Shown piece after piece: positions 357-39,116 of a stretch of 64,000 bases of DNA. Below the pieces are notes generated by a model. The model was not told the DNA's origin. It made no database searches and worked only from the letters and a program-made list of their open reading frames with translations. Origin of the DNA: Flectonema sp. DT1601 (Eukaryota); contig OZ025782.1 in the NCBI GenBank assembly GCA_964019425.1, forward strand, positions 496,001 to 560,000, read 5' to 3'. The translations under genes and the position numbers were made by a program. Each line of letters opens with the position of its first letter. Within the stretch, counting starts at the first letter, position 1.

Positions 357-597
357 GAGTTGAATTTCCAGGTGAGATTTGGACTGTTAGCTTTTGGCTA
401 AGGCCCTCCCTGAAGAGCAAGAACAAAAAAACTACTCACACCTGAAGAAAACATACACAAAGAACACACTGTAAGCTGTGTGTGTATTTTGTGTTTGTCA
501 CAACAGGAGAGAAAAGAAAGAATGTCAAGGTTGGTCACCTTGCCTATCAACGCACAACATTGGTGGTCTCTACTAGACCCTGAGTGATCCCACTGGA
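357..597 (-). mobile_element. NA-1 non-coding retroposon, 3'-terminal 240 bp
   Basis: Identical to 18049-18289, with the same junction into gag. Confidence 0.85.
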
Positions 598-15752: not shown

Positions 15753-16146
15753 CCCAGGGTTGAACCTTGGGAAAAAAACAAACAATAAACACAGTGTAGA
15801 CAAACACCCGCCGGACATCTGCAGAGCAGCGATCGATGTCGATGTCTTCGTTGTCGAACTTCCTGGCGTTTATGTTTTTGTTTTTAACAACAACACAACA
15901 CCAACTAACAGGTTTGTCTCATTGCCCGTTCTTTCTTGTTTCCCTTTGCCGCCGGAAGAACGAAGGTCGACGGAGGTCCGAAGCATTGCTTGCGATGATG
16001 TTCCGGTATGTGTTGCGTCTCTGTTATTTGTTTGTTTCAACTCAATTGGTTCATCTCAGGTTTTAGAAGTCTTCGTCCTGTTCGTTGGGAAGGGCCTGAA
16101 TCAAAAGTTCACTGCCCCTATTCCTCTCCCAAATTTCTTATTCAGC
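15753..16146 (+). mobile_element. NA-3, putative retroposon 3' end inside the spacer (also 24736-25129); 5' limit uncertain
   Basis: 16051-16146 aligns by eye with the NA-1 3' end, including the GGGC/CAAAA stem-loop and an attcagc terminus. Confidence 0.55.
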
Positions 16147-17034
16147 TTGCCACATGACTGTGTGACATTATTGCTACATTGTAGCTCCCCTACAAAAACC
16201 TTATTTTTTGCAGTTGTCTTTTGGTTGTAGCAACTTTTATTTTATGCTTTTCTAATGTCCCAAAGTTGGTTTATTTTACTTTTTTTTTTCTGCAAGGGAA
16301 CAGTCCAAAGCATAAGTCCGAACAGCCCTAAGGCCAGTGAACGCACTGATTGTTAGGTATTGTATTCCAGGGAAAGTTTGGTTTGTATACTTTATTTTTA
16401 TTTTATTTTATTTAATTTGTTAAAAGAAAACAGGTAACTTTACATGAGCATCGGCTCGAACGGCTCTGGCGAAGCGAGTGAACGAGTCTGATTGCTGAGT
16501 ATTGTATTCTGTTTTCTTGTTCTTTTTTTAATTTATTTCAAACAGGGCAACAGGGGGAAAGTTTGGTTTGTATCCCCTGGGTGTTTAGCGTCACCTGTTG
16601 AGGTGTAATGTATTCTGTTTACTTCTATCCCTTTGTTTTTTTTTTTTTTTTTTTTTATTTCAAACAGGACAGCAGGGGGAAAGTTTGTTTCGTACCCCCC
16701 GGGTGCTTAGCGTCACCCTCCATGCGATGCTTTCGCAGGGAGAGCCAAGGGTCGAGAACCCTGGAGATTACCTTTGTTTCTTTTTGTGACTGGATTGCAG
16801 TGGCGCAACCCATCACCCCACCTGTTGGTATCTTTTTATTTTTTTTATTTAAAGAAAAAAGCAGGCTAAGTCGCCTGAGCTGGCATCGCCAGAATATTTA
16901 ACTTCACATGGCAATGTCAGCTCGTGAAGGGATCCAGTTGGATCAAAGGTTTTCTCCCCCCCACTCTATTTATCGTCATTGGTGCGCACCTTCGAACAGG
17001 AAGGCCAACACTGACGGAATTTTTTACTTCTCTT
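15753..17034. repeat. Constant 1.28-kb non-coding spacer of the YR array (also 24736-26017; partial 8051-8522)
   Basis: Identical between units; contains internal imperfect duplications and hairpins. Confidence 0.85.
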
Positions 17035-18048
17035 TCATAGTTTACTCAGGGAATGATCACCAAGTCCACTTTTGTGCCTTTTTCTTACTGTTTTTTACTT
17101 TAAATTTTTCTGGTTAAAAATACCAAAAATTGTGCCGTGACCGGGAATTGAACCCCCGACCACGGTTACGTAAGCGATTTAAGGTCGACGACCATAACAA
17201 CTCGGCTATGCAGGCTCTGGTACGTCGAAAATTATTTTATACTTATTACTTTTCTGTCCTAACGGAACGGAAAATGAAAAATGTCCTTCCTTATCTAAAA
17301 TGCACTCTGCACCTATTATGTTGGTTCAGCAGTGGCTTATCGAACTTATTAGCTCTCGTTGCACTGGTTAGCGCTGTGTTTGAGACGTTATATTATATCG
17401 GTACACTTTTAACTAATATGTTACTTCCTTTCCTTAGCAAATTTTGCTCTTTTTGTTATTTCTCTAAAACAAAAGAATGTCTACACCACCAATTGTGGAA
17501 ATTCCGCATGTAGAATCTGAGATGGATTTAGATTCAATTCTGTTTGAGGATTTGAGGACGGTGAGAGCACAATCACCACGTGCCACCATCGGGGAAGCAG
17601 GGACGTTTTGGGATCCCCAATCCAAAATGTCCGAAGAGATGATGAAAAACAATTCGTTGGCCTTGATAGGAAGAGAAGCGGTGTATTGTATGAGGAAGGA
17701 AGGGGAATCAAGTTGGAATTGGTATTGTGGCTTATTGTCAATGGTGGGTAATACGGGGAGGGTAACCTTGTCAAATTCGACAAGTCTTTTAAGGGGTGTG
17801 TATCGACACACGGGGCCGGACGAAACATTCGACTTTCCACATGCGGGCTTTGAATATGCCCATGTGATAAGCAAGGATGTGTATTGGGATGAGTGGTCCA
17901 AAAGGTTAGTTCTAGAAAATGAACAAAAGATGTTAGGCATGTGCCAAAAGGTAACTAATTTGGAATCGCAGGTGGCGTCATTGTTATCGCCACAGATGCA
18001 TGGTGCGCAACCCCAGCCACAGATGCATGGTGTGCAACCCCAGCCACA

Positions 18049-20074
18049 GAGTTGAATTTCCAGGTGAGATTTGGACTGTTAGCTTTTGGCTAAGGCCCTC
18101 CCTGAAGAGCAAGAACAAAAAAACTACTCACACCTGAAGAAAACATACACAAAGAACACACTGTAAGCTGTGTGTGTATTTTGTGTTTGTCACAACAGGA
18201 GAGAAAAGAAAGAATGTCAAGGTTGGTCACCTTGCCTATCAACGCACAACATTGGTGGTCTCTACTAGACCCTGAGTGATCCCACTGGATCTCTCATCGT
18301 TCATAGTACCCTGTGTGAAGTTATAAAATCAAAGGTAAACTATGAACTACAAATGACTTAGCCTGTTATTATAATGCCACAGGCAGGCCCTGCATTCAGC
18401 AACTATCCAGCAGTGCTTGGATGTCCTGATTTTCTTCTAAAAAAAAGAAAGAAAAACAAAACTGTAGCTGGGATCACTCAGGATCAACAGACTACCAATG
18501 CTACCTGTTGTACTTGCTCACTATGGGGGGTGATGCCAAACACCCAGAAGTACTAAACTGCTTTCCTTCTTGCTGCCCAGGAGTTTCTGACCAGAACTAA
18601 TAGAAAATAAAAAGTAGATGGGAAACAATAAAAAGTAAAATGGATATAACTGAAGTTAAACAAGACAAATGAAGTAACAGACCAGAACAGAAAGAGGATT
18701 GTAATAGAAGATTACAAATAAAAAAATGCAAGTATCAACACATAATCAAGATACACCAGCAGCTAACAAACAACATAAAATTGAAGATCAGTTGCCAGAG
18801 TATTTCAACCATGGTAGAATACTCGCCCCTCTGGCAGGGATTATCCCAGACTTGTCCTTTAATTTAGTTGGACACCATGGCTTACAACCCTTCCAGAGGG
18901 AAGCACCATTATGACTTCTATTTTTTTTCTTCAAGAAAATCATAAGGTGGGAACAAAGAAAAATGCTAAGAGGAACCCCCTATTAACACCTAAGACATCT
19001 AAACTGCAGCCCAGCTTATGCCCAATGCACTAACAGGTCATTCCCTCACACTCAGATCAAAAAATCAAAGTTCAGAGTGCATCTTAGCGTGAATGAGAGA
19101 ATTTCCTCCCGCTTATTTTGAACAAAAGGGATAGGAGAAGGGATAGAAAACGAACATAAAAATAAAATTCTAAGTGAGAAACACTTAGCAGAAACACTTA
19201 GCAGCTTTTAAGGAGCTGAAAAGCAAAAAAAAAATCTAAGTGAGAAACACTTAGTAGAAACAATTTGTAGCTAATTAAGCTGAAAATAAAAAAATAAAAA
19301 ATTTCTAAGTGAGAAAAACTTAGCAACTTTTAGAACAAATATTTCAGTAAATAACCTGTAATGATTAAACCATTACAAGTTTGATGCCAAAACTGACAAG
19401 GACTGAGTTGAATTTCCAGGTGAGATTTGGACTGTTAGCTTTTGGCTAAGGCCCTCCCTGAAGAGCAAGAACAAAAAAACTACTCACACCTGAAGAAAAC
19501 ATACACAAAGAACACACTGTAAGCTGTGTGTGTATTTTGTGTTTGTCACAACAGGAGAGAAAAGAAAGAATGTCAAGGTTGGTCACCTTGCCTATCAACG
19601 CACAACATTGGTGGTCTCTACTAGACCCTGAGTGATCCCACTGGATCTCTCATCGTTCATAGTACCCTGTGTGAAGTTATAAAATCAAAGGTAAACTATG
19701 AACTACAAATGACTTAGCCTGTTATTATAATGCCACAGGCAGGCCCTGCATTCAGCAACTATCCAGCAGTGCTTGGATGTCCTGATTTTCTTCTAAAAAA
19801 AAGAAAGAAAAACAAAACTGTAGCTGGGATCACTCAGGATCAACAGACTACCAATGCTACCTGTTGTACTTGCTCACTATGGGGGGTGATGCCAAACACC
19901 CAGAAGTACTAAACTGCTTTCCTTCTTGCTGCCCAGGAGTTTCTGACCAGAACTAATAGAAAATAAAAAGTAGATGGGAAACAATAAAAAGTAAAATGGA
20001 TATAACTGAAGTTAAACAAGACAAATGAAGTAACAGACCAGAACAGAAAGAGGATTGTAATAGAAGATTACAAA
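18049..20074 (-). mobile_element. Tandem NA-1: full copy 18049-19401 plus truncated copy 19405-20074
   Basis: gagttgaatttcc restarts at 19405; gag resumes at 20078 with no clear TSD. Confidence 0.88.
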
Positions 20075-23000
20075 GATTGCATGGTGCGCAACCCCAGCCA
20101 CAGATGCATGGTGCGCAACCCCAGCCACAAATTCAACAAGAGAGTGGTATGATGCAACAAATGATGGCACTATTATCGCAAAATCAACAATTATGTCAGA
20201 TGCAGTTGCAGCATTCATCGGAATTATTAAAAAAGAAGTCAGCAGATGTGTGTCAATTGTCACCAGAGAACATCGAATGTCTGGATTTTGATCTAGCGAC
20301 GGATGCGACTAACGTGTTACAATGGCGCGATATTTTGGCGCAGGGTGGATCAGAAAGGTTGCTGGATAAACTAGAAAACAAATACTGGTCAGTGCACAGG
20401 GGTAAATTGGCCACGAGGGAGTTAAGGGAGTTGAAGGCAGCCTTTGAAATTGTAAGAGATAATGTGAGGGTGGCAAGTACTAGATCAGCGGACTGGATTA
20501 CTTCCAAACCATTGGTTCGGAGTATGAATAAATCATTGGAGTCGTTGATTATGAAATGGGAGTACACGACGAAAAGGATTAGCTCTGACGATATTGAACG
20601 AAGGGTCAAATCAGGGATGTTGTTTGAGAAGGCAGTGAGGATGGCAGAGGTTGATGCAGAGAAAAAGCACAAGATAGAAATGAGCGGGAAAGGGTATAAG
20701 GGGAGTTGGAATCCACGGAATTTCGAGTACAGGGGAAAAGGGTTCTCGGGAAACGTTGGGGGGGCTGGCAAAGGTCACAAATGAACCGAGGTCAGCCCCG
20801 AGTTAGTAAAGCGGTTTTTAAGCCGCGATCAGGGAGGCACTTGCCAAAGAAGGTCAGTGTCAGAAGAGTTAGCTCAAGTTCCAGATCGTATTTTGGAAAT
20901 AAGGGAGAAGATTCTGCGATCAGAAGGGGCCGAGGTGTCGACGTTGATCGGCAGTCTTATGAAGAACCGAATCGAGGATCAGGTGAGGAGGGTCCAAAGA
21001 GGTCGGAACAAAGAGTTTTCAATGGACCTGAACGAGTCGCTGTTAGTTATGGAAGAGATCGCAGGAAAGATGTGGGCCCAAAGTACGATGCGAAACCGCC
21101 AGTGCTTGTGGGATCGTTTATTGATTTGGGTGGAGCGGAACGATGTTCCGGTAAACCAGGACACAGTGGCGCTGTTTGTGACAGCAACGAAAGTTTCAAA
21201 GCAGGGAATGCTGGCTTATTCAAAGGCATTCTCAGGCATGCTGAAGAGGATGGGATTGGAGAACGAAACGTTGAAGCAGTTGGCAGCGGCGTTGAGAGCG
21301 GACGGGGCTGCAGTCCCATTAGATCAAGCGGAGCCAATAGATCGGTTTACTTTAATCGCATGGGCGATGAGACAAGATGTCCAGTTGAGAGTGGGCTTGT
21401 TGATCGCTTGGAAGTCGGTAGCGAGATGGGGAGAAGTTTGGAAGTTGGGAAGGAGAAATTTCATTTTCGTTTCTGTGGAAGAGATCATTGTGGACTGGTG
21501 GGATGTTCCGAAGGGACGAAGGGAAGATCCCTTCAGGCCGTCCAGATGGGTAGTGATAAGAGGATACCTGACATCGGAGATAGCACAGGGCTTGCAAATG
21601 ATGGGAAACTTTATAGCTCTAACAAGGGTATCAACAAGAAGTCTGGATGCTTTGTGGAGAAAGGACCTGTTAATGAAGAAGTTTTCAGCCCATTCAATAA
21701 AAAGGGGATCGATTTCTCATATTATGGGTCTGATGTCAACTGGAAGCAAAATCGACGAGGTCGTCATGGGAAGACTGCTGAAGCATTCTTCGAAGAGCGA
21801 TCCCTTTTCAGGGGTAACGATTCGGTATGGAGGAGACCCGGTGAGCATGGCCCGAGCATTGAGAACGGGAGAGATAACGGTGTTGTTGTGAGAAGACATA
21901 ATATTTGTAGACGACCGAAACGATCGGTATTACCAAGATCTTTAGAAGAAAAGAATTCCCCCCTGCATGTAACGAAAATTGAACCCATGTCCATTTTATT
22001 TGTAAAGGAAAGAATGTCGCAAAAACGGCTGAAAAGATTTAATTTTGTATGGGACTTAACATTTTATCCACACAAAGTATGCCACAATACCAGTTCCACA
22101 GGTCCGCTTGATCCTCATGCTTCAACCCTTGACTTCCATTCTGATTTTGATCATGTGATGAATTTTTCGGAGAAGGTGAGTTCGTTTTCTCGACTGCATG
22201 CTGATTTACTTGTGGAGAACGGGATCGCTCAGGAGACATCACAACCGAGTGAAGTTGAGAACATTCCGTTCACTGTGGTTGAGCAGAAGGCAACTGGTCT
22301 GCGCCAGAGGTTCATTCTTTGGACGAAGGAGTCAAATGAACGTTTGGTTGATGATGGTTATGTTGCTGATGTGCCCTTGGGGCATATCTCGGAATATCTG
22401 GACTCGGTGCTTCTTGATTGTGCAAGCGGAAGGGATTTCAGGACTGGTTTTTATCAGGTCGAGATTCCTCATGATGCTCGCAAGTTCTTTAGTTTTAGAT
22501 CAGACGATGGCCAGTTTTTTGAATTGACTCGGTTACCTATGGGTCATTCATGTGCACCAGAAATTATGCACACATTAGCTGCTACCATCGCAGGTCATCC
22601 TGATTATGTGAAGCCGGACATCGCGATTCATGATGTAAGAGTAGATGTTTGGATCGATAACATTAGGTATTCTGGTCCAGCGAAGGAGGTGAAAGCTAGG
22701 ACGACTGAACTTGATGGAACAGCTATGAGGGCTTCTGCAACTTGGAAGCAGGCTGATTCTTTCGATCTCTCTGTGGAGTATGAATTTTTAGGTGTCCAGT
22801 TTAGCCATCTAAGTAAGACTGTTGTTGTTTCTAAGAGATTACAGAGCAAGATTACTTCTGTGGATTTATTTTTGGTGTCAGCCTCTGGCTTGGAATCGTT
22901 GATGGGTAGATTGATGCATGCATCGGCTGTTTCTGGTGTATCTCCTGGGAGATTCTGGTTTGCCTTGAAGTTTATTAGACGGATTATTAATAAGATTAAT

Positions 23001-24140
23001 CGAGGTATTCTTGGTCTTGACGATGCGGTGCATGTCCCTCGTTCGGTACGATTGGAATTGTCTAGGTGGATGGTTGATGCTGTTAAATTGCGAACTATTA
23101 AAAAGATACTCCATGCTTCGAAACTGTTGACTGTATTTGTGGACGCTTCCTTAGAGGGATGGGGAGGTGTTGTAGTAGAACAGTCAGGTGCCCTTACTGT
23201 TGTAGGCGACATTTGGAGGCAAGAAAAAGGACTTCACATTAATATTCTCGAGGCAAAGGCTTTGCTTAATACTTTGTTAGCGTTGGACTTGTGGGATCTA
23301 AAAGGATTTAGGCTTGATATCAGGGTAGACAATACTTCTGTTATGGGGGCAGTTAGGAAAAGACAATGCCAGAAGAACAAAATCCTGAATGATGTAGTTT
23401 TGGCAGTTTCTGATTGGCTAATTTTTAAAAAGGTAGTTTTCAGTGTCAAGTATATTAAGTCTGCGTTGAATCCTGCAGACGGTCCTTCCAGAACTTCTAT
23501 GGGCCTACTTTCATCTGATAAACTGCGATCTCAAGTCATACAAGCGGTGGGGCTGTTCTTCCGCACATAATTACACTTAATCTTAATATTTCAATATCAT
23601 TCTCTTTACTGGCGTTGGGGTGTTTCTTCTTGAGGTTCGCTATTGGTGTACCTGTTGTTTCTGGCTTGTTGCACCTCTTGCCTCGGTGTTTTTCAAAGTC
23701 TTGGGTAACCGACCTCTCGAAGATGCAACATTACCCCGACGTCAGTTGTTTGTGTTTAATCTCTTTAACATTATAATTATAATTTAGTATCCATTTATTT
23801 ATTCAGTCTTAATTACACAATATGGACGATGATGGTCATTCTCATAGTTTACTCAGGGAATGATCACCAAGTCCACTTTTGTGCCTTTTTCTTACTGTTT
23901 TTTACTTTAAATTTTTCTGGTTAAAAATACCAAAAATTGTGCCGTGACCGGGAATTGAACCCCCGACCACGGTTACGTAAGCGATTTAAGGTCGACGACC
24001 ATAACAACTCGGCTATGCAGGCTCTGGTACGTCGAAAATTATTTTATACTTATTACTTTTCTGTCCTAACGGAACGGAAAATGAAAAATGTCCTTCCTTA
24101 TCTAAAATGCACTCTGCACCTATTATGTTGGTTCAGCAGT

Positions 24141-24348
24141 GAGTTGAATTTCCAGGTGAGATTTGGACTGTTAGCTTTTGGCTAAGGCCCTCCCTGAAGA
24201 GCAAGAACAAAAAAACTACTCACACCTGAAGAAAACATACACAAAGAACACACTGTAAGCTGTGTGTGTATTTTGTGTTTGTCACAACAGGAGAGAAAAG
24301 AAAGAATGTCAAGGTTGGTCACCTTGCCTATCAACGCACAACATTGGT
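24141..24348 (-). mobile_element. 5'-truncated NA-1 (208 bp) in SDR-a2
   Basis: Splits cagcagt|ggcttatc; fixed gagttg end; gtgg microhomology at the other end. Confidence 0.9.
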
Positions 24349-26017
24349 GGCTTATCGAACTTATTAGCTCTCGTTGCACTGGTTAGCGCTGTGTTTGAGA
24401 CGTTATATTATATCGGTACACTTTTAACTAATATGTTACTTCCTTTCCTTAGCAAATTTTGCTCTTTTTGTTATTTCTCTAAAACAAAAGAATTTCCCAC
24501 CCTCCCACCCTGGGTGTTTCTTCTTGAGGTTCGCTATTGGTGTACCTGTTGTTTCTGGCTTGTTGCACCTCTTGCCTCGGTGTTTTTCAAAGTCTTGGGT
24601 AACCGACCTCTCGAAGATGCAACATTACCCCGACGTCAGTTGTTTGTGTTTAATCTCTTTAACATTATAATTATAATTTAGTATCCATTTATTTATTCAG
24701 TCTTAATTACACAATATGGACGATGATGGTCATTCCCCAGGGTTGAACCTTGGGAAAAAAACAAACAATAAACACAGTGTAGACAAACACCCGCCGGACA
24801 TCTGCAGAGCAGCGATCGATGTCGATGTCTTCGTTGTCGAACTTCCTGGCGTTTATGTTTTTGTTTTTAACAACAACACAACACCAACTAACAGGTTTGT
24901 CTCATTGCCCGTTCTTTCTTGTTTCCCTTTGCCGCCGGAAGAACGAAGGTCGACGGAGGTCCGAAGCATTGCTTGCGATGATGTTCCGGTATGTGTTGCG
25001 TCTCTGTTATTTGTTTGTTTCAACTCAATTGGTTCATCTCAGGTTTTAGAAGTCTTCGTCCTGTTCGTTGGGAAGGGCCTGAATCAAAAGTTCACTGCCC
25101 CTATTCCTCTCCCAAATTTCTTATTCAGCTTGCCACATGACTGTGTGACATTATTGCTACATTGTAGCTCCCCTACAAAAACCTTATTTTTTGCAGTTGT
25201 CTTTTGGTTGTAGCAACTTTTATTTTATGCTTTTCTAATGTCCCAAAGTTGGTTTATTTTACTTTTTTTTTTCTGCAAGGGAACAGTCCAAAGCATAAGT
25301 CCGAACAGCCCTAAGGCCAGTGAACGCACTGATTGTTAGGTATTGTATTCCAGGGAAAGTTTGGTTTGTATACTTTATTTTTATTTTATTTTATTTAATT
25401 TGTTAAAAGAAAACAGGTAACTTTACATGAGCATCGGCTCGAACGGCTCTGGCGAAGCGAGTGAACGAGTCTGATTGCTGAGTATTGTATTCTGTTTTCT
25501 TGTTCTTTTTTTAATTTATTTCAAACAGGGCAACAGGGGGAAAGTTTGGTTTGTATCCCCTGGGTGTTTAGCGTCACCTGTTGAGGTGTAATGTATTCTG
25601 TTTACTTCTATCCCTTTGTTTTTTTTTTTTTTTTTTTTTATTTCAAACAGGACAGCAGGGGGAAAGTTTGTTTCGTACCCCCCGGGTGCTTAGCGTCACC
25701 CTCCATGCGATGCTTTCGCAGGGAGAGCCAAGGGTCGAGAACCCTGGAGATTACCTTTGTTTCTTTTTGTGACTGGATTGCAGTGGCGCAACCCATCACC
25801 CCACCTGTTGGTATCTTTTTATTTTTTTTATTTAAAGAAAAAAGCAGGCTAAGTCGCCTGAGCTGGCATCGCCAGAATATTTAACTTCACATGGCAATGT
25901 CAGCTCGTGAAGGGATCCAGTTGGATCAAAGGTTTTCTCCCCCCCACTCTATTTATCGTCATTGGTGCGCACCTTCGAACAGGAAGGCCAACACTGACGG
26001 AATTTTTTACTTCTCTT

Positions 26018-27585: not shown

Positions 27586-27974
27586 GGGAAGTAACGGACT
27601 GGGAGCTTTTGGCTCCTGCCCTATTCCCGATGTAAACTTTCTTTTTATTTTTTTTTTTTTTTTAACAGGCCCAGAGGGCGACAATGACTGTTGCTGACCA
27701 AGGAATAATATTCAAATGAATTTTCGTTTCAAAGAAACGAACAGAATTAAGAGAGAGGCAGAGAAAAAAAAAAAAAAAAGAAAGAAAAGAAAAAAAAAAT
27801 ATGAAGAGGAAATAATCAAACATGAAAAAAATAAAAAAAAAAAATAAAATATAAATAAAAAACGTTGTATGAAAAAGGAAAAAAAAAAAAAAAAAAAAAA
27901 AAAAAGACCAGAAAAGGAAAGAGAAAATGAAAAGGTATAATATTATTGTGGGGATATGAGGATAGCAGGGAGAT

Positions 27975-28005
<31 letters not shown>

Positions 28006-31000
28006 ATTTATTATTTAAAAAAAAGGAAACAATCAGTTTAGCGTCTCGATCGGGACGGAAAATAGAAATTAATCGACATAGTCGATCGATAGAAAAAAAA
28101 ACAATGATAACATTGTTTATTCATTTTTTTTTTTTTTTTTTTTTTTAAATCCTTTTAATTATTTTAAAGAAAAAACAATCAGTTTAGCGTCTTGACCAGG
28201 ACGGAAAATAGAAAGTGATCGACATAGTCGATCGATAAAAAAACAATGATAACATTGTTTATTCTTTTTTTTTTTTTTTTTTAAATTCTTATTATTTATT
28301 TTTTAAAGAAAAAAAACGGAAAATAAAAATTAGTCGACAAAGTCGAACGATAAAAAAAAAAAAAAAAACAATGATAACATTGTTTATTCTTTTTTTTTTT
28401 TTTTTTTTTTTTTATATTCTTTTTTATTAATTTTGAAAAAAAAAAACAATCAGTTTAGCGTCTTGACCAGGACGGAAAATAGAAAGTAATCGACATAGTC
28501 GATCGATAAAAAAAGCAATGATAACATTGTTTAATCTTTTTTTTTTTTAATTTTTTTTTTATTTATTTTTTAAAGAAAAAAAAAACGGAAAATAGAAATT
28601 AGTCGACAAAGTCGAACGATAAAAAAACAATGATAACATTGTTTATTCTTTTTTTTTTTATTTTTTTTATATTTTTTTTTTTTTAATTAATTTTGAAAAA
28701 AAAAAACAATCAGTTTAGCGTCTTGACCAGGACGGAAAATAGAAAGCGATCGACATAGTCGATCGATAAGAAAACAATGATAACATTGTTTATTCTTTTT
28801 ATTATTTTAAATTCTTTTTATTTATTTTTTAAAGAAAAAAAAAACGGAAAATAGAAATTAGTCGACAAAGTCGAACGATAAAAAAAAACAATGATAACAT
28901 TGTTTATTCTTTTTTTTGTATTTTTTTTATATTCTTTTTTATTAATTTTGAAAAAAAAAAAAAAACAATCAGTTTAGCGTCTTGACCAGGACGGAAAATA
29001 GAAAGTGATCGACATAGTCGATCGATAAAAAAAAAAAAAAAAACAATGATAATATTGTTTATTCTTTTTTTTTTTTTTTTTTTTTTAAATTCTTTTTATT
29101 TATTTTTTAAAAAAAAAAAATGGAAAATAGAAAATAGTCAACAAAGTCGAACGATAAAAAAAAACAATGATAACATTGTTTATTCTATTTTTTTATTTTT
29201 TTTTTTTTTTCTATTCTTTTTTATTAATTTTGAAAAAAAAAAAAAACAATCAGTTTAGCGTCTTGACCAGGACGGAAAATAGAAAGTAATCGACATAGTC
29301 GATCGATAAAAAAAACAATGATAACATTGTTTATTCTTTTTTTTTTTTTTTTTTAAATTCTTTTTATTTATTTTTTAAAAAGAAAAAAAACGGAAAATAG
29401 AAATTAGTCAACAAAGTCGAACGATAAAAAAAAAAACAATGATAACATTGTTTATTCTTTTTTTTTTTATTTTTTTTATATTCTTTTTTATTAATTTTGA
29501 AAAAAAAAAACAATCAGTTTAGCGTCTTGACCAGGACGGAAAATAGAAAGTGGTCGACATAGTCGATCGATAAAAAAACAATGATAACATTGTTTATTCT
29601 TTTTTTTTTATTTTTAAAGAAAAAAAAACGGAAAATAGAAATTAGTCGACAAAGTCGAACGATAAAAAAAACAATGATAACATTGTTTATTCTTTTTTTT
29701 TTTTATTTTTTTATTATTTTTTTATTTTTTTTTATTTTTTTTTTTTATATTCTTTTTTATTAATTTTGAAAAAAAAAAAAAACAATCAGTTTAGCGTCTT
29801 GACCAGGACGGAAAATAGAAAGTAATCGACATAGTCGATCGATAAAAAAAACAATGATAACATTGTTTATTCTTTTTTTTTATTTTAAATTCTTTTTATT
29901 TATTTTTTAAAGAAAAGAAACGGAAAATAGAAATTAGTCGACAAAGTCGAACGATAAAAAAACAATGATAACATTGTTTATTCTTTTTTTTTAATTTTTT
30001 TATATTCTTTTTTATTAGTTTCGAAAAAAAAAACAATCAGTTTAGCGTCTTGACCAGGACGGAAAATAGAAAGTGATCGACATAGTCGATCGATAAAAAA
30101 ACAATGATAACATTGTTTATTCTTTTTTTTTATTTTAAATTCTTTTTATTTATTTTTTAAAGAAAAGAAACGGAAAATAGAAATTAGTCGACAAAGTCGA
30201 ACGATAAAAAAACAATGATAACATTGTTTATTCTTTTTTTTTAATTTTTTTATATTCTTTTTTATTAGTTTCGAAAAAAAAAACAATCAGTTTAGCGTCT
30301 TGACCAGGACGGAAAATAGAAAGTGATCGACATAGTCGATCGATAAAAAAACAATGATAACATTGTTTATTCTTTTTTTTATTTTAAATTCTTTTTATTT
30401 ATTTTTTAAAGAAAAGAAACGGAAAATAGAAATTAGTCGACAAAGTCGAACGATAAAAAAACAATGATAACATTGTTTATTCTTTTTTTTTTTTTTTTTT
30501 TTATTTCTTTTTATTTATTAAAAAAAAAAAACAATCAGTTTAGCGTCTTGACCAGGACGGAAAATAGAAAGTGATCGACATAGTCGATCGATAAAAAAAA
30601 CAATGATAACATTGTTTATTCTTTTTTTTTATTTTAAATTCTTTTTATTTATTTTTTAAAGAAAAGAAACGGAAAATAGAAATTAGTCGACAAAGTCGAA
30701 CGATAAAAAAACAATGATAACATTGTTTATTCTTTTTTTTTAATTTTTTTATATTCTTTTTTATTAGTTTCGAAAAAAAAAACAATCAGTTTAGCGTCTT
30801 GACCAGGACGGAAAATAGAAAGTGATCGACATAGTCGATCGATAAAAAAACAATGATAACATTGTTTATTCTTTTTTTTTATTTTAAATTCTTTTTATTT
30901 ATTTTTTAAAGAAAAGAAACGGAAAATAGAAATTAGTCGACAAAGTCGAACGATAAAAAAAACAATGATAACATTGTTTATTCTTTTTTTTTATTTTAAA

Positions 31001-31893
31001 TTCTTTTTATTTATTTTTTAAAGAAAAGAAACGGAAAATAGAAATTAGTCGACAAAGTCGAACGATAAAAAAACAATGATAACATTGTTTATTCTTTTTT
31101 TTTATTTTATTTTTATATTCTTTTTTATTAATTTTGAAAAAAAAAACAATCAGTTTAGCGTCTTGACCAGGATGGTAAATAGAAAGTAATCGACATAGTC
31201 GATCGATAAAAAAAACAATGATAACATTGTTTATTCTTTTTTTTTATTTTAAATTCTTTTTATTTATTTTTTAAAGAAAAGAAACGGAAAATAGAAATTG
31301 GTCGACAAAGTCAAACGATAAAAAAACAATGATAACATTGTTTATTCTTTTTTTTTTTTTTTTTTTTTATTTCTTTTTATTTATTAAAAAAAAAAACAAT
31401 CAGTTCAGCGTCTTGACCAGGACGGAAAATAGAAAGTGATCGACATAGTCGATCAATAAAAAAAACAATGATAACATTGTTTATTCTTTTTTTTTATTTT
31501 AAATTCTTTTTATTTATTTTTTAAAGAAAAAAAACGGAAAATAGAAATTAGTCGACAAAGTCGAACGATAAAAAAAAACAATGATAACATTGTTTATTCT
31601 TTTTTTTATTTTTTTTTTTTTTATTCTTTTTTTATTAGTTTTGAAAAAAAAAAAACAAACAGTTTAGCGTCTTGACCAGGACGGAAAATAGAAAGTAATT
31701 GACATAGTCGATCGATAAAAAAAACAATGATAACATTGTTTATTCTTTTTTTTTATTTTAAATTCTTTTTATTTATTTTTTAAAGAAAAAAACTGAAAAT
31801 AGAAATTAGTCGACAAAGTCGAACGATAAAAAAAACAATGATAACATTGTTTATTCTTTTTTTTTATTTTAAATTCTTTTTATTTATTTTTTA
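27586..31893 (-). repeat. NA-2 unit: about 450-bp unique 3' tail plus an array of 120/240-bp AT-rich satellite (about 28030-31893)
   Basis: Repeating aaacaatgataacattgttt, gatcgacatagtcgatc and cagtttagcgtcttgaccaggacgg separated by variable A/T runs. Confidence 0.92.
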
Positions 31894-34800
31894 ACAGGAG
31901 TTAAGATCACTTACATGAGTTAACACAACACAGATACGAGAGTCGCAAACTGAGGTAACACTACCAATTCAACAAAAAATAATCAGGATCGGACACAAGG
32001 AGGAGAGTTCATTCTACCTCTCATTGTCCTTGCTGGTATCTTAAGTGTCTTGGTATCTCTTGTGTGTCGGTATCTCGGAAGTGCTGGTATCTCGTTTGTG
32101 CGTTGGTATCTCTTGCGTGTTGGTATCTCTTGCACATAAAAAAAAAAAATATTGAGTTAACATGATCAGTATTATTTAACATTAAAGACAGACCGGAACT
32201 ATTTGAAAATAAAATGTAGATGGGAAACAGTGAAAATTAAAATGAATGATAAAATTAAATGAGATTTATGACATAACAGACCAGATAGAGAGTAATAAAG
32301 GGAAAAGGAAAACGGGAAGGGTTTATTCACTTAGTTAAAGTTAAGACCGATTAGTCAGTTTAAGGTCTTGACTAGGACCAACAAAAAAAAAAAAATAAAT
32401 AAATAAATAAATAACGATCAAGCTGAGCTGATCTTGTTTTTATTAAAATAAGGGGAGCGGGAGGGATGGGAGGAATAAAGGAAAAAAAAAAGAAAAGGTC
32501 GATCAATTGGGTCTGATCGTCGAGAAGAAGAAGACAATTATTTTAAAGGTCGATCGGCATAGCCGATCGTTGAGAAAAAATAACCATATATAAATACAAT
32601 CAGTTTAAATTTAAAAAAAAAAAAAAAAAAAGATTAACGATCAAGCTGAGCTGATCTTGTTTTTATTAAAATAAGGGGAGCGGGAGGGATGGAAGGAATA
32701 AAGGAAAAAAAAAAAAAGGTCGATCAATTGGATCTGATCGTCGAGAAGAAGAAAACAATTATTTTAAAAAAATGATCGGTATAGCCGATCGTTGAGAAAA
32801 GAACAGATATAAATACAATCGGTTTTGGTGATCGACGAGTGGAGCGATCACTTGACAAGAAGGAAAAAAGAAAGGACCGATTAATTGGGGCTTTGGTTGT
32901 ATTCCCAAGGCATGTTTTTTTTTTTTTTTTTTTTATTATTCATTTACATTATTTTTTTTTTTTTTTTTTAAATTAATAATCACATTTTATTCAAAAATAT
33001 TTCATATTAGAGTAAAAGAAAAAGAAAAAAAAGAGATAAGAGAAAAAAAAAAAAAAAAAAAAAAACCATTGCTGGCCCCCTCACCACTCATAGAGGATGA
33101 GGAGGCCAGTAAGGCGTCACTCAAAAACTATGCCAAGCCTTGGGAACTTGGATTGGGGTTTAGACCATTTATAATTAACAATTAACAATTAACCTGATTA
33201 ACGTTATGATCTGACGGACATAAACATATCGATAAAATAATACAAACAAAAACGAACAATAAATAATAAATAAGCTAAAAAACTAAATAAACAAAGTGAT
33301 GTGAAAGTAAGGAAAAAGAGAATTACAAGGGGGTGGAGTCACCGTGAACGTCATCAGCAGAACATCTCCTTCGATTGTAACGATATCTTGATGGAGGGGT
33401 TCGTTTTTTCAGAGTTGAACGCTCAGACTTTCTCGGCGGAGTTTCATTTTCCTCATGTTCTTCTGTGTCTGGCGGACTCAAACCTTCTGCCCATGAAGCT
33501 AATTGGAACTTCAGGGCCGCAATTTGAGACCGTGCCAAGGCGAGTTGAGCATTTAAATCGCTCGCCAGTCCCGTTAACATCATGGATTGCTCAAGCTGCT
33601 CTGCGTGAGTTGTACACCGTTGGTGATTCAGCTCCGAGAGGCGAAGTTGGGCATCCAGAAGTTGTTCTGAGAGCTCTGCCGCTTTCTCGTTTGTTTCGAG
33701 AGAGTCATCTACTGCTCGACAGTAATTCTCGAGTAAGTCAATCCTACCCTCGGACCATTGTCTCGCAATAGGTGTATTCTCTTTAACGGAGATAACGTGA
33801 CTTTCTTGTCGTAAAATCTTGGTCGGCGTGCGGTCGAGAGCTTCACTCTGCGGCATTGTCGGAGGAATTGAAGCTAGAGGACAAAGAGGGGTGATATAAT
33901 TAAGGGTAGGGATAAGGGGTTTAATAAGAGGAGTAAAAAGACTACTCGTAGTTGTAAAGAGCGAGAGGTAGTTCTTTGCTATCTTCATCATAGCAACAGA
34001 TTCATACAGAACGGGGGTTCGGGGGGAAACTTGTTGACTAAAGTGGGTCATACGGGGACGCGCGGCACGCAAACTCTCGACCTCCTGTTGAGTATAGAAA
34101 AGTCTTATTTTACTTTCTCTTTCCTCATTACATTTGGTCTCCAATTCGTTCGACAGAAGAACAAACCTTTGATGGTAATTAAAGAGCGCCATTTCCGATA
34201 GGTCTGCTCTCTGAGTCAGATTTGCGAGCTCACGTTTCCTGTAATCTTCCACTAAGTCATATTGTCGAACTAGTGCAGAAAGAGAAGTCTTCGATTCATC
34301 GCGTTCTGCTGTTAACCGTTGAATTACTCCTTCCAGAAGTTCATATTCTTTTCTATCTTTTTCAATAATTAAAACAGGGGGCGCAGGAGGAAGTGAGGAT
34401 GGATCCTGGTTGGTAGCTTTGATCTCAACAGGTAATCCATTTAGTAACTGCTTGTCTTTCTCGAGGGAGGCTGACATCGCATTAAAGTAAAATAAAAATA
34501 GAACATAAAAAATTCGTTCTTTCATTTGCTCTAATTCGTTTTCTAAAATCTGGCATTTCAAGGAAAGTTTCAGCCTTAATTTTCCTTCTTTTTTTTTGTA
34601 CAAGGGGGTTTGAGAACCCATGTCAGATTGAGTTCTTATCACTATAGCGAAATCAGCAGGAAGTGTTTGCGATCCCGTTGACATGAGTTCAGGTGGGGGA
34701 GTCTGGAAAGAGATGGAAGAAATAGAAGAGAATGACAAGGAGAGTCCAGTGAGCTCATCCTCATCTAACAAAACAGAAGGGGCCGGGGAGGAAGAACCAT

Positions 34801-37800
34801 TGGCAATAAGTAGAATAGAAAGAGCCGATGCGTAACAAGTTTGCCAGATAAAACATTTCTCAAGCCACGATCTTTCAATGGTGAGCTTTTCGATCGTTTT
34901 CAGTTTTGTTACTTTGTGGATTTTGACTTCTTCCACAGGGAAGATTTCTTTACCATCTTTTATAAAACTTGCAGTGGCAGGTTCTTCTTTAATGCTGCGC
35001 ATTAGTGGTCTTGAATGCCACGTGGGGAGGTTCCTCGTCTGGAACAGAACATATGAGCACTGTCTGGCGATTCTGGTGCATTCACAAAATAAAGCTTTTG
35101 TTGGTGCTAAAGGTGAACCGATGTGACGTGTCCAGATGTTCAGCTGGTCCATGCAGATGTTTCCTCGTACGCCAACTTCAATAGTAAAAATGTTACAGTC
35201 GAAGCCATTAGCGATGATCGAGTCTCTTAGCTTTAGGTATTTCTTTTCCTTTAAGACATGAGAGGTTTCGAAACGATCTTCATTTGGACACGTCAGCTCC
35301 AGAATCAGTGCTCTTTTCGCAAAAAAAGAATAAATAAAAATGTCTGGTCTTAGAGAGGACGAGACATGGCACACTTCAAGAGGAACAATTAGGCGGTTAT
35401 CACCGACATCGTCGAGGATGACCCAATCATTCGCTAGTGAAAGTTCGCCTGTCTCTTTAGAAATTCTTTCTAGGGGTTTATTTTCCCCCGTTTTTAAAAA
35501 AGTTTGAGAGGGAGGCGGGAGGTTTTCTTTTCTTTTGTTGGCTTTTATTATCAACTCTTCCAAGAAGATAACAATGCGTTTTAGAACGCTGTCGTGACGC
35601 CACGTGAACCTCCCTTGTGTTAAAGAGACAGGACAGCCTGTTAAGACATGCCTGAGGGTAGGATTCACTTTGCCACACAAAACACAATTTTGGTCCACAT
35701 TGGTGATGTTCCACCTCTTTAAATTATCTTGTGAGGGGAGGGTGTTTGTAACCGCTTTCAGTTGAAATGAGATATAGGCAGGATTTCCCTCCCTAAGTAC
35801 CTTATTCCAGGTGAAGTCGTTTATCATACATTTAGACCACTCCTTCCACTGACCTTGGACTTGTAATTTATTCAAAGAGTTCAGTAGTTCATCTGTGGCT
35901 TCCACTTCAAAACGCTTAAGGAGATCGGGGCGAGTAGTACGTAGATCGCGCAATCGGTGACCAAGACCAGCTGATTGCTTCGCAAGAGAACGGTAAGAAA
36001 AAAACTTAATAAGGCGCTCCCACTCAGCAGAAGCTGAAAACTTTTTCGACCAGTTGGACGATTTCTCCATAATAACATTGTAGACACCGTGCATGTCAGA
36101 GTCCTGTGAGGATCTGAGGATGTCTAGTTTAATTGATTGCGCTTGTTTATATAGCGTCTCAACTCTTTTGTGTCTGAGACCAACAGTGTTCTTTGAACCG
36201 GTAAAAAGGATGACTGTGTTCGCAGAGCGGACAAATCCCCACCATTTCTTCAAAAAAGGTTTAATAATTTTGTCCATTTTTTTGGCAAAAGGGAGAGATA
36301 AGTCATGGATCATTAAACTCCATGTTAACCTTGACAATAACAAGTGTTGGACAGACCAAGCCTTCTGAGACCCATATAGTGGCATGGCGTCGACTTTTTT
36401 TAAAAAATTCCTGGTAAAAGTGGTCAGGCGCTCTCGCAATTTCTGTTCTTTGGCGTTCGGCTCAAACCAACGCCCGAGGTATTTGAACTCTCCAGCTTCC
36501 TGGAGATTCGTAATCGGAACATTGTTAATCTTCAGGTCCGGGTTAGCTGGTTTCCCTTGTACAAAGCTGTGGGCAATGCATTTCTGGGGTTTCGCTTTCA
36601 TACCACGAGACCAGGAAAGAAACTGTTCGAGCGACTTGATTAGCAATTTTGCCCCCGCCTTTGATGACGTGGTAAGTTGTAAATCATCAGCAAAAGCTGC
36701 AACTAATAGTTGGAGGGATTTATTGTTAAACTCGTAGGCTTCCTGTTGATGAACTGCTAAGGAAAAGAGCAGTAGTTGGAATACCAAATTAAAAAGGGTT
36801 GGGGAGGAAACGCAGCCTTGAAAGACACCAACTTCAAAAGGGATAGTGGGCGTCAGGCCTTCTCCAACTCTGATTTGGACGCGCATGGAGGAATAATACC
36901 TTTTATAGAAACCGATTATTCTTTCGTGAATTCCGAAATATTTTAAAGCAAAGAAAATTAATTGATGTTTGACTGATCCGAAAGCATCTGCCAAATCCAC
37001 CCAGACAATTGTTAGGTTTTTCCGGAGAGCTTTCACTTCTTTAAAAATCTCTGAGGTGATCGTGGCATGTTCGATACACCCAGAGACACCTTTCCTAAAG
37101 CCTTTTTGAAAATTAAATTTAGAAAGAGTGTGGTTTGCGACGGCTTCCTGAATGACCGTATTAAAAATTTTCCCGTCGCAGTTGCCCACAGCTATCGGTC
37201 TCGTTTTCGAGATGTCTTTCCCATCGGAGTTGGGCTTTGGGAGCATTGTTACAAATGCTAAGCCCCAACTATCCGGATAGGCCTTGAGTTCGAAAATTCT
37301 CTTTAATACCTTGTAAAGTGCTTCCATAAAAGTTGGGACCTTTTTCCATACAACATAAGGTATGCAATTGGGACCAGGGGCACATTTGTTTTTTTTCTTT
37401 GATAAGAGAATACCAAACTGTTCGAAGCTCGGGAACTGGATATCATCCATTGTCTTGTAGTCAGACTTAGGTAAAAAAGAGGGATGGGTGAAATCAGTTT
37501 TTTTTTTTTCATTGTCACAATAATTGTTTTTAAAATGTTCAATTATTTTTTCCTCTGGAATATCAAGGGAGGGGGGTTGAGGATCTTCTTTTTGGAGTTC
37601 TTCTTTTATGGCAGTAAACGGATTTTGACGAAATTTATCTTGTAATTTTTTGAATAAATTTTTCTTTTCTAAATTCCGATACATTCGGAAAATCCTTTTC
37701 ATTCTCGTTCTTGCCTCTTTCCATTTGACAGCGTTCTCTATAGAAGGCCCAGATTTGCGGAGCTCCTGTCTTAGCTGTTTCATTTCCAGACGACATTCAA

Positions 37801-38890
37801 GTTTTTCTTGGTCGAGGATGACCTCTTCCCTTGATTTCTGTTTGCGGGGTAAATTCCGCTTTGTTTCTTCAAAGAAACTGCTACAAATTTGATAAACCGT
37901 TTTGAGTAGTTTATCAAGTTGGTCGGCAGGTTTTAAAGAGTTTTCTGTTTCGACGGTGAAAGTTTGGAGTTTTTCTGTAGCAGAAACGTCGATGTCCTTC
38001 CATTCAGTTCCAAAAGATCGGAATTTGAGACGAGACGGGTGTAACGGGGTAAAAGTGGGTGTTGTAGAGTTACAAGGAACGAAAGCTGTTTGTGAAGTTT
38101 TAAAATCTACAGATTCTCCTACAAAGGGAGGTTCCAGGTCTGAATTATTCCCTGTGAGGGGAGACAGAGGTGTACCTTTACATGTACCGTTAGCACAGTG
38201 TTTCGCTCTCGTAGCGATACTTTTGAAAAGCTTACCACATTCTGGACAAGGTAAGTGGTAACAATCTTTAACTTGGGAGTGGGTAGATGGGGGAAAACGT
38301 GACTTATAGTCCTTAAATTCTTTACTAAACTTACAGTTACGTCTAAAATGCGCAACTGGACCTTTGAGGTATGTCTCAAAACATAAAGGACATTTGGCTA
38401 CTAAAGTTTTATCCCCATCCAGAGCCGATCTCGAAATAGCCTCTTGTAAAGCCTCGGGGGCTGGGTTGGCTGAGAGATGGTTGCCAGTATCTTTATGACA
38501 CCGCCGGCCCGGTGTTTCTTTTTTTTTTTGTTGTGAAGTAGCAATAATAAAAAAAAAAAAAAAATAGAAAAGAGAATGGCTCAGAAACAATATCGATGAG
38601 TTAAGATCTTTTTTTTTAAACTAATTCTTTTTTTTTTAATTTCGGGCAGCTAACCCTAGAGTTTTTTTTTGGTAAATACTGTTTAAAGGAAAACGAGCTA
38701 CGCTCTAAAACAGAAAAATCGGAGTAACTACTTGTTTATAATATATATTTTGATAAATAATGTGGTTGGCAAATGAATGCCGAAGAGGCAACTTGAGAAA
38801 AGCAATTGGATGAGAAGAAACATTGGGTCTTATAAAGCAAAGGAGATAGAGGGGCCTAAAAAGACCGCAGAGTGGATAGCTCCACAAAAG
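31894..38890 (-). mobile_element. HERO/R2-like RLE non-LTR retrotransposon, apparently full length, 1.4-kb 3' UTR ending gatcttaactcctgt
   Basis: Single long ORF; 3' terminus shared with the copy ending at 41897; 5' boundary uncertain (38598-38890). Confidence 0.85.
33323..38590 (-). CDS. Zn fingers, RT, CCHC, restriction-like endonuclease, coiled-coil extension (up to 1755 aa)
   Basis: CPLC..H..C and CPEC..H..C; QKGF, DLADAFGSV, GVFQGC, FADD, YLG; CVLC..H..C QGRFTWRHDSVL; RPD..ELTCP..KEKKY, typical of the HERO clade. Confidence 0.93.
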   Translation of the reverse strand: MFLSHSLFYFFFFFIIATSQQKKKETPGRRCHKDTGNHLSANPAPEALQEAISRSALDGDKTLVAKCPLCFETYLKGPVAHFRRNCKFSKEFKDYKSRFPPSTHSQVKDCYHLPCPECGKLFKSIATRAKHCANGTCKGTPLSPLTGNNSDLEPPFVGESVDFKTSQTAFVPCNSTTPTFTPLHPSRLKFRSFGTEWKDIDVSATEKLQTFTVETENSLKPADQLDKLLKTVYQICSSFFEETKRNLPRKQKSREEVILDQEKLECRLEMKQLRQELRKSGPSIENAVKWKEARTRMKRIFRMYRNLEKKNLFKKLQDKFRQNPFTAIKEELQKEDPQPPSLDIPEEKIIEHFKNNYCDNEKKKTDFTHPSFLPKSDYKTMDDIQFPSFEQFGILLSKKKNKCAPGPNCIPYVVWKKVPTFMEALYKVLKRIFELKAYPDSWGLAFVTMLPKPNSDGKDISKTRPIAVGNCDGKIFNTVIQEAVANHTLSKFNFQKGFRKGVSGCIEHATITSEIFKEVKALRKNLTIVWVDLADAFGSVKHQLIFFALKYFGIHERIIGFYKRYYSSMRVQIRVGEGLTPTIPFEVGVFQGCVSSPTLFNLVFQLLLFSLAVHQQEAYEFNNKSLQLLVAAFADDLQLTTSSKAGAKLLIKSLEQFLSWSRGMKAKPQKCIAHSFVQGKPANPDLKINNVPITNLQEAGEFKYLGRWFEPNAKEQKLRERLTTFTRNFLKKVDAMPLYGSQKAWSVQHLLLSRLTWSLMIHDLSLPFAKKMDKIIKPFLKKWWGFVRSANTVILFTGSKNTVGLRHKRVETLYKQAQSIKLDILRSSQDSDMHGVYNVIMEKSSNWSKKFSASAEWERLIKFFSYRSLAKQSAGLGHRLRDLRTTRPDLLKRFEVEATDELLNSLNKLQVQGQWKEWSKCMINDFTWNKVLREGNPAYISFQLKAVTNTLPSQDNLKRWNITNVDQNCVLCGKVNPTLRHVLTGCPVSLTQGRFTWRHDSVLKRIVIFLEELIIKANKRKENLPPPSQTFLKTGENKPLERISKETGELSLANDWVILDDVGDNRLIVPLEVCHVSSSLRPDIFIYSFFAKRALILELTCPNEDRFETSHVLKEKKYLKLRDSIIANGFDCNIFTIEVGVRGNICMDQLNIWTRHIGSPLAPTKALFCECTRIARQCSYVLFQTRNLPTWHSRPLMRSIKEEPATASFIKDGKEIFPVEEVKIHKVTKLKTIEKLTIERSWLEKCFIWQTCYASALSILLIANGSSSPAPSVLLDEDELTGLSLSFSSISSISFQTPPPELMSTGSQTLPADFAIVIRTQSDMGSQTPLYKKKEGKLRLKLSLKCQILENELEQMKERIFYVLFLFYFNAMSASLEKDKQLLNGLPVEIKATNQDPSSLPPAPPVLIIEKDRKEYELLEGVIQRLTAERDESKTSLSALVRQYDLVEDYRKRELANLTQRADLSEMALFNYHQRFVLLSNELETKCNEERESKIRLFYTQQEVESLRAARPRMTHFSQQVSPRTPVLYESVAMMKIAKNYLSLFTTTSSLFTPLIKPLIPTLNYITPLCPLASIPPTMPQSEALDRTPTKILRQESHVISVKENTPIARQWSEGRIDLLENYCRAVDDSLETNEKAAELSEQLLDAQLRLSELNHQRCTTHAEQLEQSMMLTGLASDLNAQLALARSQIAALKFQLASWAEGLSPPDTEEHEENETPPRKSERSTLKKRTPPSRYRYNRRRCSADDVHGDSTPL

Positions 38891-39085
38891 GCTGAATTCG
38901 ATAGAGTGGGAAGTAACGGACTGGGAGCTTTTGGCTCCTGCCCTATTCCCGATGTAAACTTTCTTTTTATTTTTTTTTTTTTTTTAACAGGCCCAGAGGG
39001 CGACAATGACTGTTGCTGACCAAGGAATAATATTCAAATGAATTTTCGTTTCAAAGAAACGAACAGAATTAAGAGAGAGGCAGAG

Positions 39086-39116
<31 letters not shown>

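Follow-up and report, generated by a model that had tools for sequence, protein, structure and literature searches.

What links three repeat families that carry the same small RNA hairpin close to their 3' ends? How RLE retrotransposons recognise their RNA is understood for little besides R2. A natural triplet with a common 26-nt hairpin amounts to a ready-made mutational scan, predicting which bases mark identity and which matter for shape alone, and so opens the choice of template by HERO-like elements to direct tests. Such a triplet is present in the stretch of DNA analysed here, a window of 64,000 nucleotides from a likely euglenozoan, and was initially annotated as three non-coding families, NA-1, NA-2 and NA-3, forming an undescribed group whose driver was not known. 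That description has to be revised, as the autonomous element itself proves to be among the three and the kind of signal is an established one. The accompanying prediction, that poly(A)-less retroposons carry a signal for RT recognition at their 3' ends, has fared better: the hairpin ends an RT-RLE element, and the junctions of NA-1 are of the type expected from target-primed reverse transcription (TPRT).

A shared core hairpin

The core consists of a 4-bp helix, a 1x2 loop, a 5-bp helix and a CAAAA loop. In its NA-3 variant it lies at 16092..16117 (+) and again at 25075..25100 (+), the latter within a 100% identical segmental duplicate and not independent. The cores at 16092 (NA-3), 47603 (NA-1) and 44911 (NA-2) were confirmed with the sequences originally given for them; the CAAAA loop is identical in all three variants, and the stems differ at four of five pairs. 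Scanning the 64-kb window for the pattern GGGC-N-stem-CAAAA-stem-CN-GYCC recovered 13 copies (six NA-1, five NA-2, two NA-3) with the 5-bp stem fully paired in every one, and a covariance model of the hairpin, run with filters off, returned exactly these 13 and no fourteenth. The pattern did not occur in any of 200 local dinucleotide shuffles, and a structure-only version of it appeared at a mean of 0.195 per shuffle as against the 13 observed. As a control, a DNA-pattern scan of viral contigs yielded 103 matches to the pattern, 75 of them distinct, none of which had a stem paired at all five positions; a separate scan of viral contigs found no relative.

When the three variants are aligned, nine pairs by three sequences give 27 cells, all of them paired, with four pairs invariant, two changed on one side and three changed on both; in slid registers just 26–48% of cells pair. 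The compensatory change claimed for the 5-bp stem is present with modest support, its level being reached in 15 of 500 column shuffles of only three sequences, and the core covariation, drawn from three sequence variants, is suggestive rather than decisive. G-U pairs are workable on one strand only, the sense strand, where the minimum-energy core fold is the same in all three variants, as against three different folds on the antisense strand; this comparison was made by minimum-energy folds alone, the antisense motif energies, non-canonical pairs included, being set aside. Folding z-scores against shuffles are clear for NA-2 (-2.4 to -3.1) and weak for NA-3 (-1.06) and NA-1 (-0.20). About 14 nucleotides of the core are conserved, all within one unbranched hairpin.

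Two further features of the original description survive in part. An outer helix, said to covary as well, does fold in each variant; its spacing differs between the families, and since it is out of register column-wise covariation cannot be claimed. Termini of the form ATTCA(G/A)C had been placed 25–30 nt past the core, and NA-1 does have a fixed end at 24 nt, but the termini are not uniform across families. The hairpin is real as a structured repeat motif. Rfam, searched at E ≤ 1, gave no credible match to it; an Rfam lncRNA fragment model lying over two NA-2 copies scored 25.9 and 22.4 bits against a cut-off of 55 and was put down to chance.

The RT-RLE element, its tail and its relatives

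NA-2 had been taken for a non-coding family, and the HERO copies of the window were thought to be without the motif at their own ends. Neither statement holds, as NA-2 is collinear and continuous with the RT-RLE ORF in two copies, and the hairpin stands 5.7 kb past the stop codon, behind a satellite. The autonomous RT-RLE (HERO-like) element is about 11.3 kb long (27586..38890, -), its 5' end being placed from a head-to-tail joint, and contains a single open frame of 1765 codons (33323..38620, -), without Met in its first ~290 codons. The frame encodes, in order, N-terminal zinc-finger-like Cys/His motifs, RT, a CCHC knuckle and RHD/PD-ExK endonuclease motifs, followed by a C-terminal extension of about 570 aa (33326-35050, -) for which no match was found in 86 related loci. 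Residues C609, C612, H621, C626, R638, H639, P722, D723 and E738 are invariant in 21 aligned proteins. The best solved-structure relatives in the PDB are R2 proteins (E=4e-32), and a single ORF in which RT is followed by a CCHC knuckle and a PD-(D/E)xK endonuclease is the arrangement of the R2 (RLE) group; the N-terminal 330 aa had no usable match in the ESM Atlas.

The 3' UTR (27586..33322, -; 5.7 kb) comprises a unique part, 212-bp repeats, a spacer, an AT-rich satellite of ~140-bp units (27977-31894, 3.9 kb in this full-length copy) and the ~390-nt tail called NA-2, with the core hairpin (27596..27621, -) at the 3' end of the full-length element. A 5'-truncated copy of the same 3' end (38891..39534, -; core 38918-38943) lies head-to-tail directly upstream of the full-length copy, with a tail that matches 27586-27976 at 100% identity. 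Another 5'-truncated copy, in inverted orientation (39535..44961, +; core 44911-44936) includes the ORF end, UTR, repeats, satellite and tail, and further NA-2 tails behind satellite are found at 48445..48853 (+; core 48805-48830) and 51033..51433 (+; core 51381-51406, end ATTCAGC). All five NA-2 tails follow the satellite at the same joint. In two copies the order is ORF end, UTR, 212-bp repeats, satellite and tail, with identities of 99.4% over the ORF end, 90% over the spacer and 98% over the tail; as this common order goes together with differing repeat numbers, the linkage of ORF and tail is likely a family trait and not one accident. The NA-2 ends adjoin unrelated flanks and agree within a few nucleotides in four of the five copies. 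Two have the end ATTCAGC, 27 nt after the core, and the other three are shorter by a few to 17 nt, the full-length copy falling 17 nt short of the ATTCAGC form. Whether the hairpins are 3' ends of RLE-ORF elements, a check proposed with the initial annotation, can therefore be answered for NA-2: its hairpin ends the window's own RT-RLE element.

The 212-bp repeats (32392-32825, 40532-41388) and the satellite are internal parts of the 3' UTR, built of small GATC-flanked palindromes. Satellite blocks lie at 27977-31894, 41984-44557, 44962-46467, 47654-48444 and 49773-51032; the satellite spreads with 5'-truncated RT-RLE copies and is itself a target of NA-1.

A protein search gave 24 matches, the RT-RLE proteins among which are 27–36% identical to that of the window, and an alignment-seeded scan assembled 86 loci, 79 from metagenomes (the best 79 of 525) and seven from a genome collection. 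The HERO label is provisional; we take it from a RYTWRHD-type motif and from the initial annotation, and the RT tree has no reference HERO elements. In that quick tree of 76 rows, from which loci with stops or less than 270 aa of RT were left out, the window's RT occupies a long branch and is at most 40% identical to any relative found. Its single ORF with RT and C-terminal RLE, and the lack of a strict target site, are as described for the HERO clade, whose members are mostly not site-specific according to the accessible text of PMC4640811 and PMC3636483. The hairpin covariance model found nothing significant in any of the 86 loci (best E=4.1), an absence that does not extend to elements with long UTRs, since the sequence past the stop reaches at least 300 nt in 45 of the 86 loci and at least 3000 nt in only six.

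One clade of the relatives carries a different module of ~90 nt, a three-way junction with an H-type pseudoknot, about 100 nt past the RT-RLE stop where that region is present. In 10 sequences both partners change at 16 of its 27 pairs, a level met in 0 of 500 shuffles, and it had no Rfam match in the 15 loci scanned. The pseudoknot model is strong in 14 loci (L003, L008, L010, L014, L020, L024, L053, L055, L056, L057, L058, L063, L066 and L067; for example L008:3222-3312), with the module on both sides of the ORF in L010, L056 and L067 and upstream of it in L053, L057 and L063. It is a candidate for an RT signal or a new ribozyme, and possibly more interesting than the CAAAA hairpin. The window holds a single copy (59003-59090, +; 36 bits, E=2.9e-9), situated behind an AT-rich stretch, after which comes a 168-bp partial duplication (59044-59211 / 59270-59435); the RT-RLE element and the NA-1 and NA-3 families are not recognised by the model (best E among them 0.71). 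This copy suggests a second RLE lineage in the genome, which could be another driver. The CAAAA hairpin seems specific to its lineage, and UTR modules with RNA structure seem to be a general feature of the branch. A long GC-rich hairpin about 190 nt past the RT-RLE stop (33063-33150, -; 40239-40295, +) resembles the relatives' pseudoknot by eye; the copy at ~33063-33150 is not counted as its homologue, as the model does not match.

NA-1, NA-3 and the head-to-tail joints

The full NA-1 unit is non-coding and 1353 bp long (18049..19401, -; core 18073-18098). Its 5' end is discrete in two independent copies, at 19401 and at 53454, the latter in an older NA-1-like copy (51955-53454) whose 5' end is the same as that of the full unit; since no coding remnant was found in NA-1 either, it is a true short element and not a random truncation. 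One 5'-truncated copy stands head-to-tail upstream of the full unit (19402..20074, -; core 19429-19454). Others lie in the RT-RLE satellite (46468..47652, +; core 47603-47628), in the A repeat of a tyrosine-recombinase (YR) element (24141..24350, -; 210 bp, core 24165-24190) and in the older NA-1-like copy (52342..52562, -; 221 bp, core 52366-52391), and a 3' piece at 357..597 (-; core 381-406) is a duplicate of the 18049 junction.

At five of five independent junctions the 3' end of NA-1 is ATTCAACTC, ending on the same base, 24 nt past the core; the 5' ends fall at unit positions 1, 170, 684, 1133 and 1144. Three insertions can be compared with an empty target in the window (a YR gag repeat, the YR A repeat and the satellite), and a fourth was judged from a homologous segment. 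These four occupy unrelated sites, which speaks for no strict target site. They show a duplication of 0–3 bp and no poly(A), and their 5' joints have microhomology or a few added bases; in three of the four, element end and target overlap by 1–2 nt at the 3' joint. A fixed 3' end, variable 5' truncation and little or no target duplication are what is expected of the R2 group, and NA-1 behaves as a retroposed non-coding element with TPRT-type junctions. The window's APE-type element, an Ingi-like APE-RT-RNaseH element (598-6589, +) with an intact 1329-codon frame and an upstream 577-codon ORF1-like frame, ends in a poly(A) tail, which NA-1 does not have; the direct repeats of the YR element are split. 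Neither is therefore a fitting driver of NA-1. The RT-RLE element does fit, we infer, and its 3' UTR shares with NA-1 a 99-nt same-sense segment of 79% identity. A twister-like reading of NA-1 (GAGGG...UAA) was dropped, as the other two variants are without these bases.

The weakest of the three members is NA-3, in which no coding remnant was found. Its 3' part (15753..16146, +; duplicate 24736-25129) has a putative terminus ATTCAGC, 29 nt after the core, with identical sequence beyond it in both copies; because both belong to one segmental duplicate (15364-18050 = 24347-27033, 100% identical, containing both NA-3 cores), ATTCAGC as a terminus rests on one independent copy. A putative 5' part of the next NA-3 unit follows at 16147..17034 (+; duplicate 25130-26017; 5'-truncated copy 8052-8523). 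Between the two NA-3 parts lies the YR element (17035..24735, +), a VIPER/Ngaro-like retrotransposon of the order A1-gag-YR-RT/RH-B1-A2-B2, a repeat layout like the A1...B1-A2-B2 set out in the accessible text of PMC6681497, and itself a carrier of NA-1 insertions. With the YR element removed, 16147-17034 joins 24736-25129 and the unit ends in the hairpin and ATTCAGC; NA-3 is probably one unit of ~1.28 kb, split by the YR element and arranged head-to-tail. As the window has no empty copy or independent flank, the unsplit NA-3 is a parsimonious reconstruction and not an observation.

Copies or parts of the YR element at 10468-15752, 17035-24735, 26018-27585 and 6589-8054 are 99.9–100% identical and young, with split direct repeats and a tandem unit of ~9 kb. 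The intact frames, presumably gag-like (429 codons), YR (368) and RT-RNaseH (956), were named from motifs and recall, with no Pfam match.

In all three families a 3' end adjoins a 5' start of the same family, and a 5'-truncated copy of the 3' end stands directly upstream of both the full RT-RLE element (38891-39534) and the full NA-1 (19402-20074). End-to-end template jumping is our preferred cause; the alternatives are read-through templates or repeated insertion, the latter reportedly proposed in a published study as a route to head-to-tail copies. R2 makes end-to-end template jumps in vivo, according to the accessible text of PMC3414825. Among the related loci, 16 of the 39 that were testable have the ORF flanked by direct repeats, pointing to tandem or LTR-like organisation (L002, L003, L009, L010, L032, L033, L037, L038, L039, L044, L048, L052, L054, L055, L067 and L075). 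Most of these repeats are exact overlaps between contig ends, an outcome to be expected of collapsed tandem arrays as well as of terminal repeats, and a few are diverged (83% identity in L010, 66% in L055 and 94% in L067). Several relatives run into simple repeats, namely (TATC)n, (TC)n, (CAT)n, telomeric (TAACCC)n or poly(A).

Proposed template recognition, competing explanations and neighbouring features

The reading we favour, at a probability of roughly 0.65, is that the RT-RLE protein uses the hairpin as a template-recognition signal for TPRT and that NA-1, and probably NA-3, are non-autonomous riders. In both the RT-RLE element and NA-1 the hairpin lies 24–27 nt from the 3' end. The protein would bind the RNA hairpin and start target-primed reverse transcription, and the riders would keep this structure alone, the CAAAA loop and the GGGC/GYCC helix serving as marks of identity and the 5-bp stem counting for its shape alone. 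It would nick DNA without strict site choice and might prime on the last 1–2 nt of the RNA; reverse transcription would often stop early, and after a full-length pass it would sometimes jump end-to-end to a second RNA, leaving head-to-tail partial copies. Against this reading count the small number of variants, only three, the 15 of 500 shuffles that equal their covariation and the weak z-scores of NA-3 and NA-1, as do the shortened ends of three of the five NA-2 copies, the single independent copy behind the NA-3 terminus, the absence of the motif from the 86 related loci within the sequence available there, and the possible second RLE lineage.

By analogy, the system likely works like a stringent LINE/SINE tail. 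As in zebrafish ZfL2-1/ZfL2-2, eel UnaL2/UnaSINE and the monocot L1/SINE pair, a subterminal stem-loop with a conserved loop and a variable, paired stem is common to driver and partner; in ZfL2 recognition is bipartite, the stem being read generally and the loop specifically (accessible text of PMC4176376). Those LINEs have an APE endonuclease, short-repeat or poly(A) ends and SINEs that are usually tRNA-headed, whereas here the endonuclease is an RLE and there is no tail repeat. The plant (monocot) L1/SINE pair has a 3' stem-loop tail in common, and the tails of SINEs and LINEs are typically ~100 nt long and near-identical, as stated in the accessible text of PMC3747384; here only the 20–27 nt of the core align. 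ARAGORN called no tRNA genes, Rfam gave no 5S, 7SL or tRNA match, and a Pol III head may have decayed. Since no such head was found and there is no long shared tail, we do not file NA-1 and NA-3 as classical SINEs.

R2 and the Drosophila SIDEs provide the second parallel, with an RLE-group protein, a structured 3' end, which R2 needs for TPRT, partners that keep the fold, and template jumps. The 3' ends of R2 SIDEs retain their structure through compensatory changes (accessible text of PMC3414825), and for R2Tg the last ~65 nt of the 3' UTR suffice (accessible text of PMC12222951). R2 is 28S-specific, uses a core of two helices or a pseudoknot and has a 5' HDV-like ribozyme, which SIDEs retain; here, unlike in R2, the targets are varied, the signal consists of a single hairpin at the far end of a 5.7-kb UTR, and no HDV-like fold was found. 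NA-1 and NA-3 had no blastn match to the driver's 5' region, where the descriptor search likewise found no HDV-like fold, and with no shared 5' end or ribozyme they are not filed as R2-type SIDEs. Penelope-like elements have a GIY-YIG endonuclease, a hammerhead-bearing pseudo-LTR and a partial-tandem architecture. The 5'-truncated copy lying head-to-tail upstream of a full one, with inverted partial copies nearby, is reminiscent of that pseudo-LTR, but the endonuclease here is an RLE and not GIY-YIG, and no hammerhead core was found.

The principle of a shared 3' stem-loop is long established. What is new is a HERO-like driver in a likely euglenozoan, with a 26-nt structure alone in common, no tail repeat and head-to-tail copies. 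A literature search that covered mainly the main texts of openly accessible papers found no HERO 3' RNA structure and no HERO-dependent non-autonomous elements. As to the host, the best labelled matches of a housekeeping protein are transcriptome entries of 67–73% identity with the prefixes Rhum, Sspe and Hpha, which presumably stand for diplonemids, ahead of named kinetoplastids at 63–65%; taken with the Ingi-like and VIPER-like elements, these matches indicate a euglenozoan, likely a diplonemid. The locus also places an RLE lineage other than CRE/SLACS on record in a likely euglenozoan: in their accessible text, trypanosomatid surveys list INGI, CRE, VIPER and TATE only (PMC12278014), and the D. 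papillatum genome paper has R2-like RT annotations and no curated families (PMC10161547). A template signal that is very small and tail-less is relevant to tools for RNA-templated gene insertion.

The three tails cannot be aligned beyond the 26-nt core, and NA-1 and NA-3 may accordingly depend on sister proteins. In that case the same signal would have different drivers, NA-1 and NA-3 descending from sister HERO-like families with proteins of their own and an ancestral hairpin, which we regard as unlikely yet worth keeping in mind. Old divergence is indicated by the unalignable tails and by the longer shared segment, only 79% identical; the stems differ at four of five pairs, and the further RLE-type RNA module at 59003 suggests that several RLE families coexist. 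Set against this are the discrete 5' end of NA-1 (19401, 53454) without coding remnant and the loop, identical in all three families and a mark of specificity in ZfL2.

It is improbable, to a greater degree, that RT recognition lies elsewhere and the hairpin is a 3'-end-forming or self-cleaving RNA signal at the head-to-tail joint, in which case a multimeric read-through transcript would be cut at the joint, giving a fixed 3' end and a discrete 5' end. The adjoining of 3' end and same-family 5' start in all three families, the lack of a poly(A) or repeat tail and the direct repeats around the ORF in 16 of 39 testable relatives would suit such cleavage, and ribozymes are known in non-LTR elements (accessible text of PMC3414825). 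However, the conserved part comprises only about 14 nucleotides in one unbranched hairpin, the 3' ends of NA-2 vary by several bases, Rfam gave no ribozyme match at E ≤ 1, and a descriptor search detected neither a hammerhead core nor an HDV-like fold at the hairpins or joints. For the self-cleaving ribozymes on record (hammerhead, HDV-like, twister and others in Rfam 15) there was no match to a family model or catalytic core. An HDV-like descriptor match at 9353 is away from any hairpin and was judged a chance hit.

A long shot of similar standing goes beyond the favoured reading: the 26-nt hairpin alone would make any RNA a template, and its CAAAA loop would pair with UUUUG at the RNA's own 5' end, closing a ring from which end-to-end RT jumps would arise routinely and leave pseudo-LTRs; NA-3 might even be copied as a 9-kb unit with the whole tyrosine-recombinase retrotransposon as cargo. 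Both the driver and NA-1 do have UUUUG within their first 16 nt, compared with 2–5% of such windows in the background; NA-3 does not.

Far less probable still is a DNA-level role for the hairpin, as a single-stranded stop or start signal of rolling-circle (Helitron-like) or other transposition. Helitrons have a subterminal hairpin, no poly(A) and almost no target duplication, a pattern also seen here, together with a 3' CTRR, a fixed 5' end and a Rep/helicase partner. In the window the motif marks the end of an RT-RLE element, it is the hairpin-bearing end that is fixed and the opposite one that varies, the termini are not CTRR, and no HUH or helicase ORF was recognised among the long ORFs scanned; Helitron membership is disfavoured. 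That three unrelated repeats came by a common motif through chance or convergence, for which its shortness and the frequency of CAAAA (313 in the window) might be cited, can practically be dismissed in view of the 0 of 200 shuffles, the 0 of 75 fully paired control sequences and a similar terminal word at the same distance.

The remainder of the window is of mixed content. A second, different RNase H-bearing remnant lies on the other strand from the Ingi-like element (9267-10467, -). Between two NA-2 copies stands a MITE-like element with terminal inverted repeats of ~20 bp (48854-49722), in which a decayed tRNA-like stretch near 49580-49650 was not called by ARAGORN. An LSU rRNA fragment (54360-54830, -) starts about 12 nt before what we take to be the conserved R2/I-PpoI-type site and adjoins a poly-G/poly-C hairpin repeat, which also occurs in tandem at 48926-49522; 54827-54950 and 57480-57500 belong with these features. 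Three apparently intron-less host genes follow on one strand (59774-63558, +), encoding a 2-amino-3-ketobutyrate CoA ligase, a VTT-domain protein and a DnaJ-domain protein.
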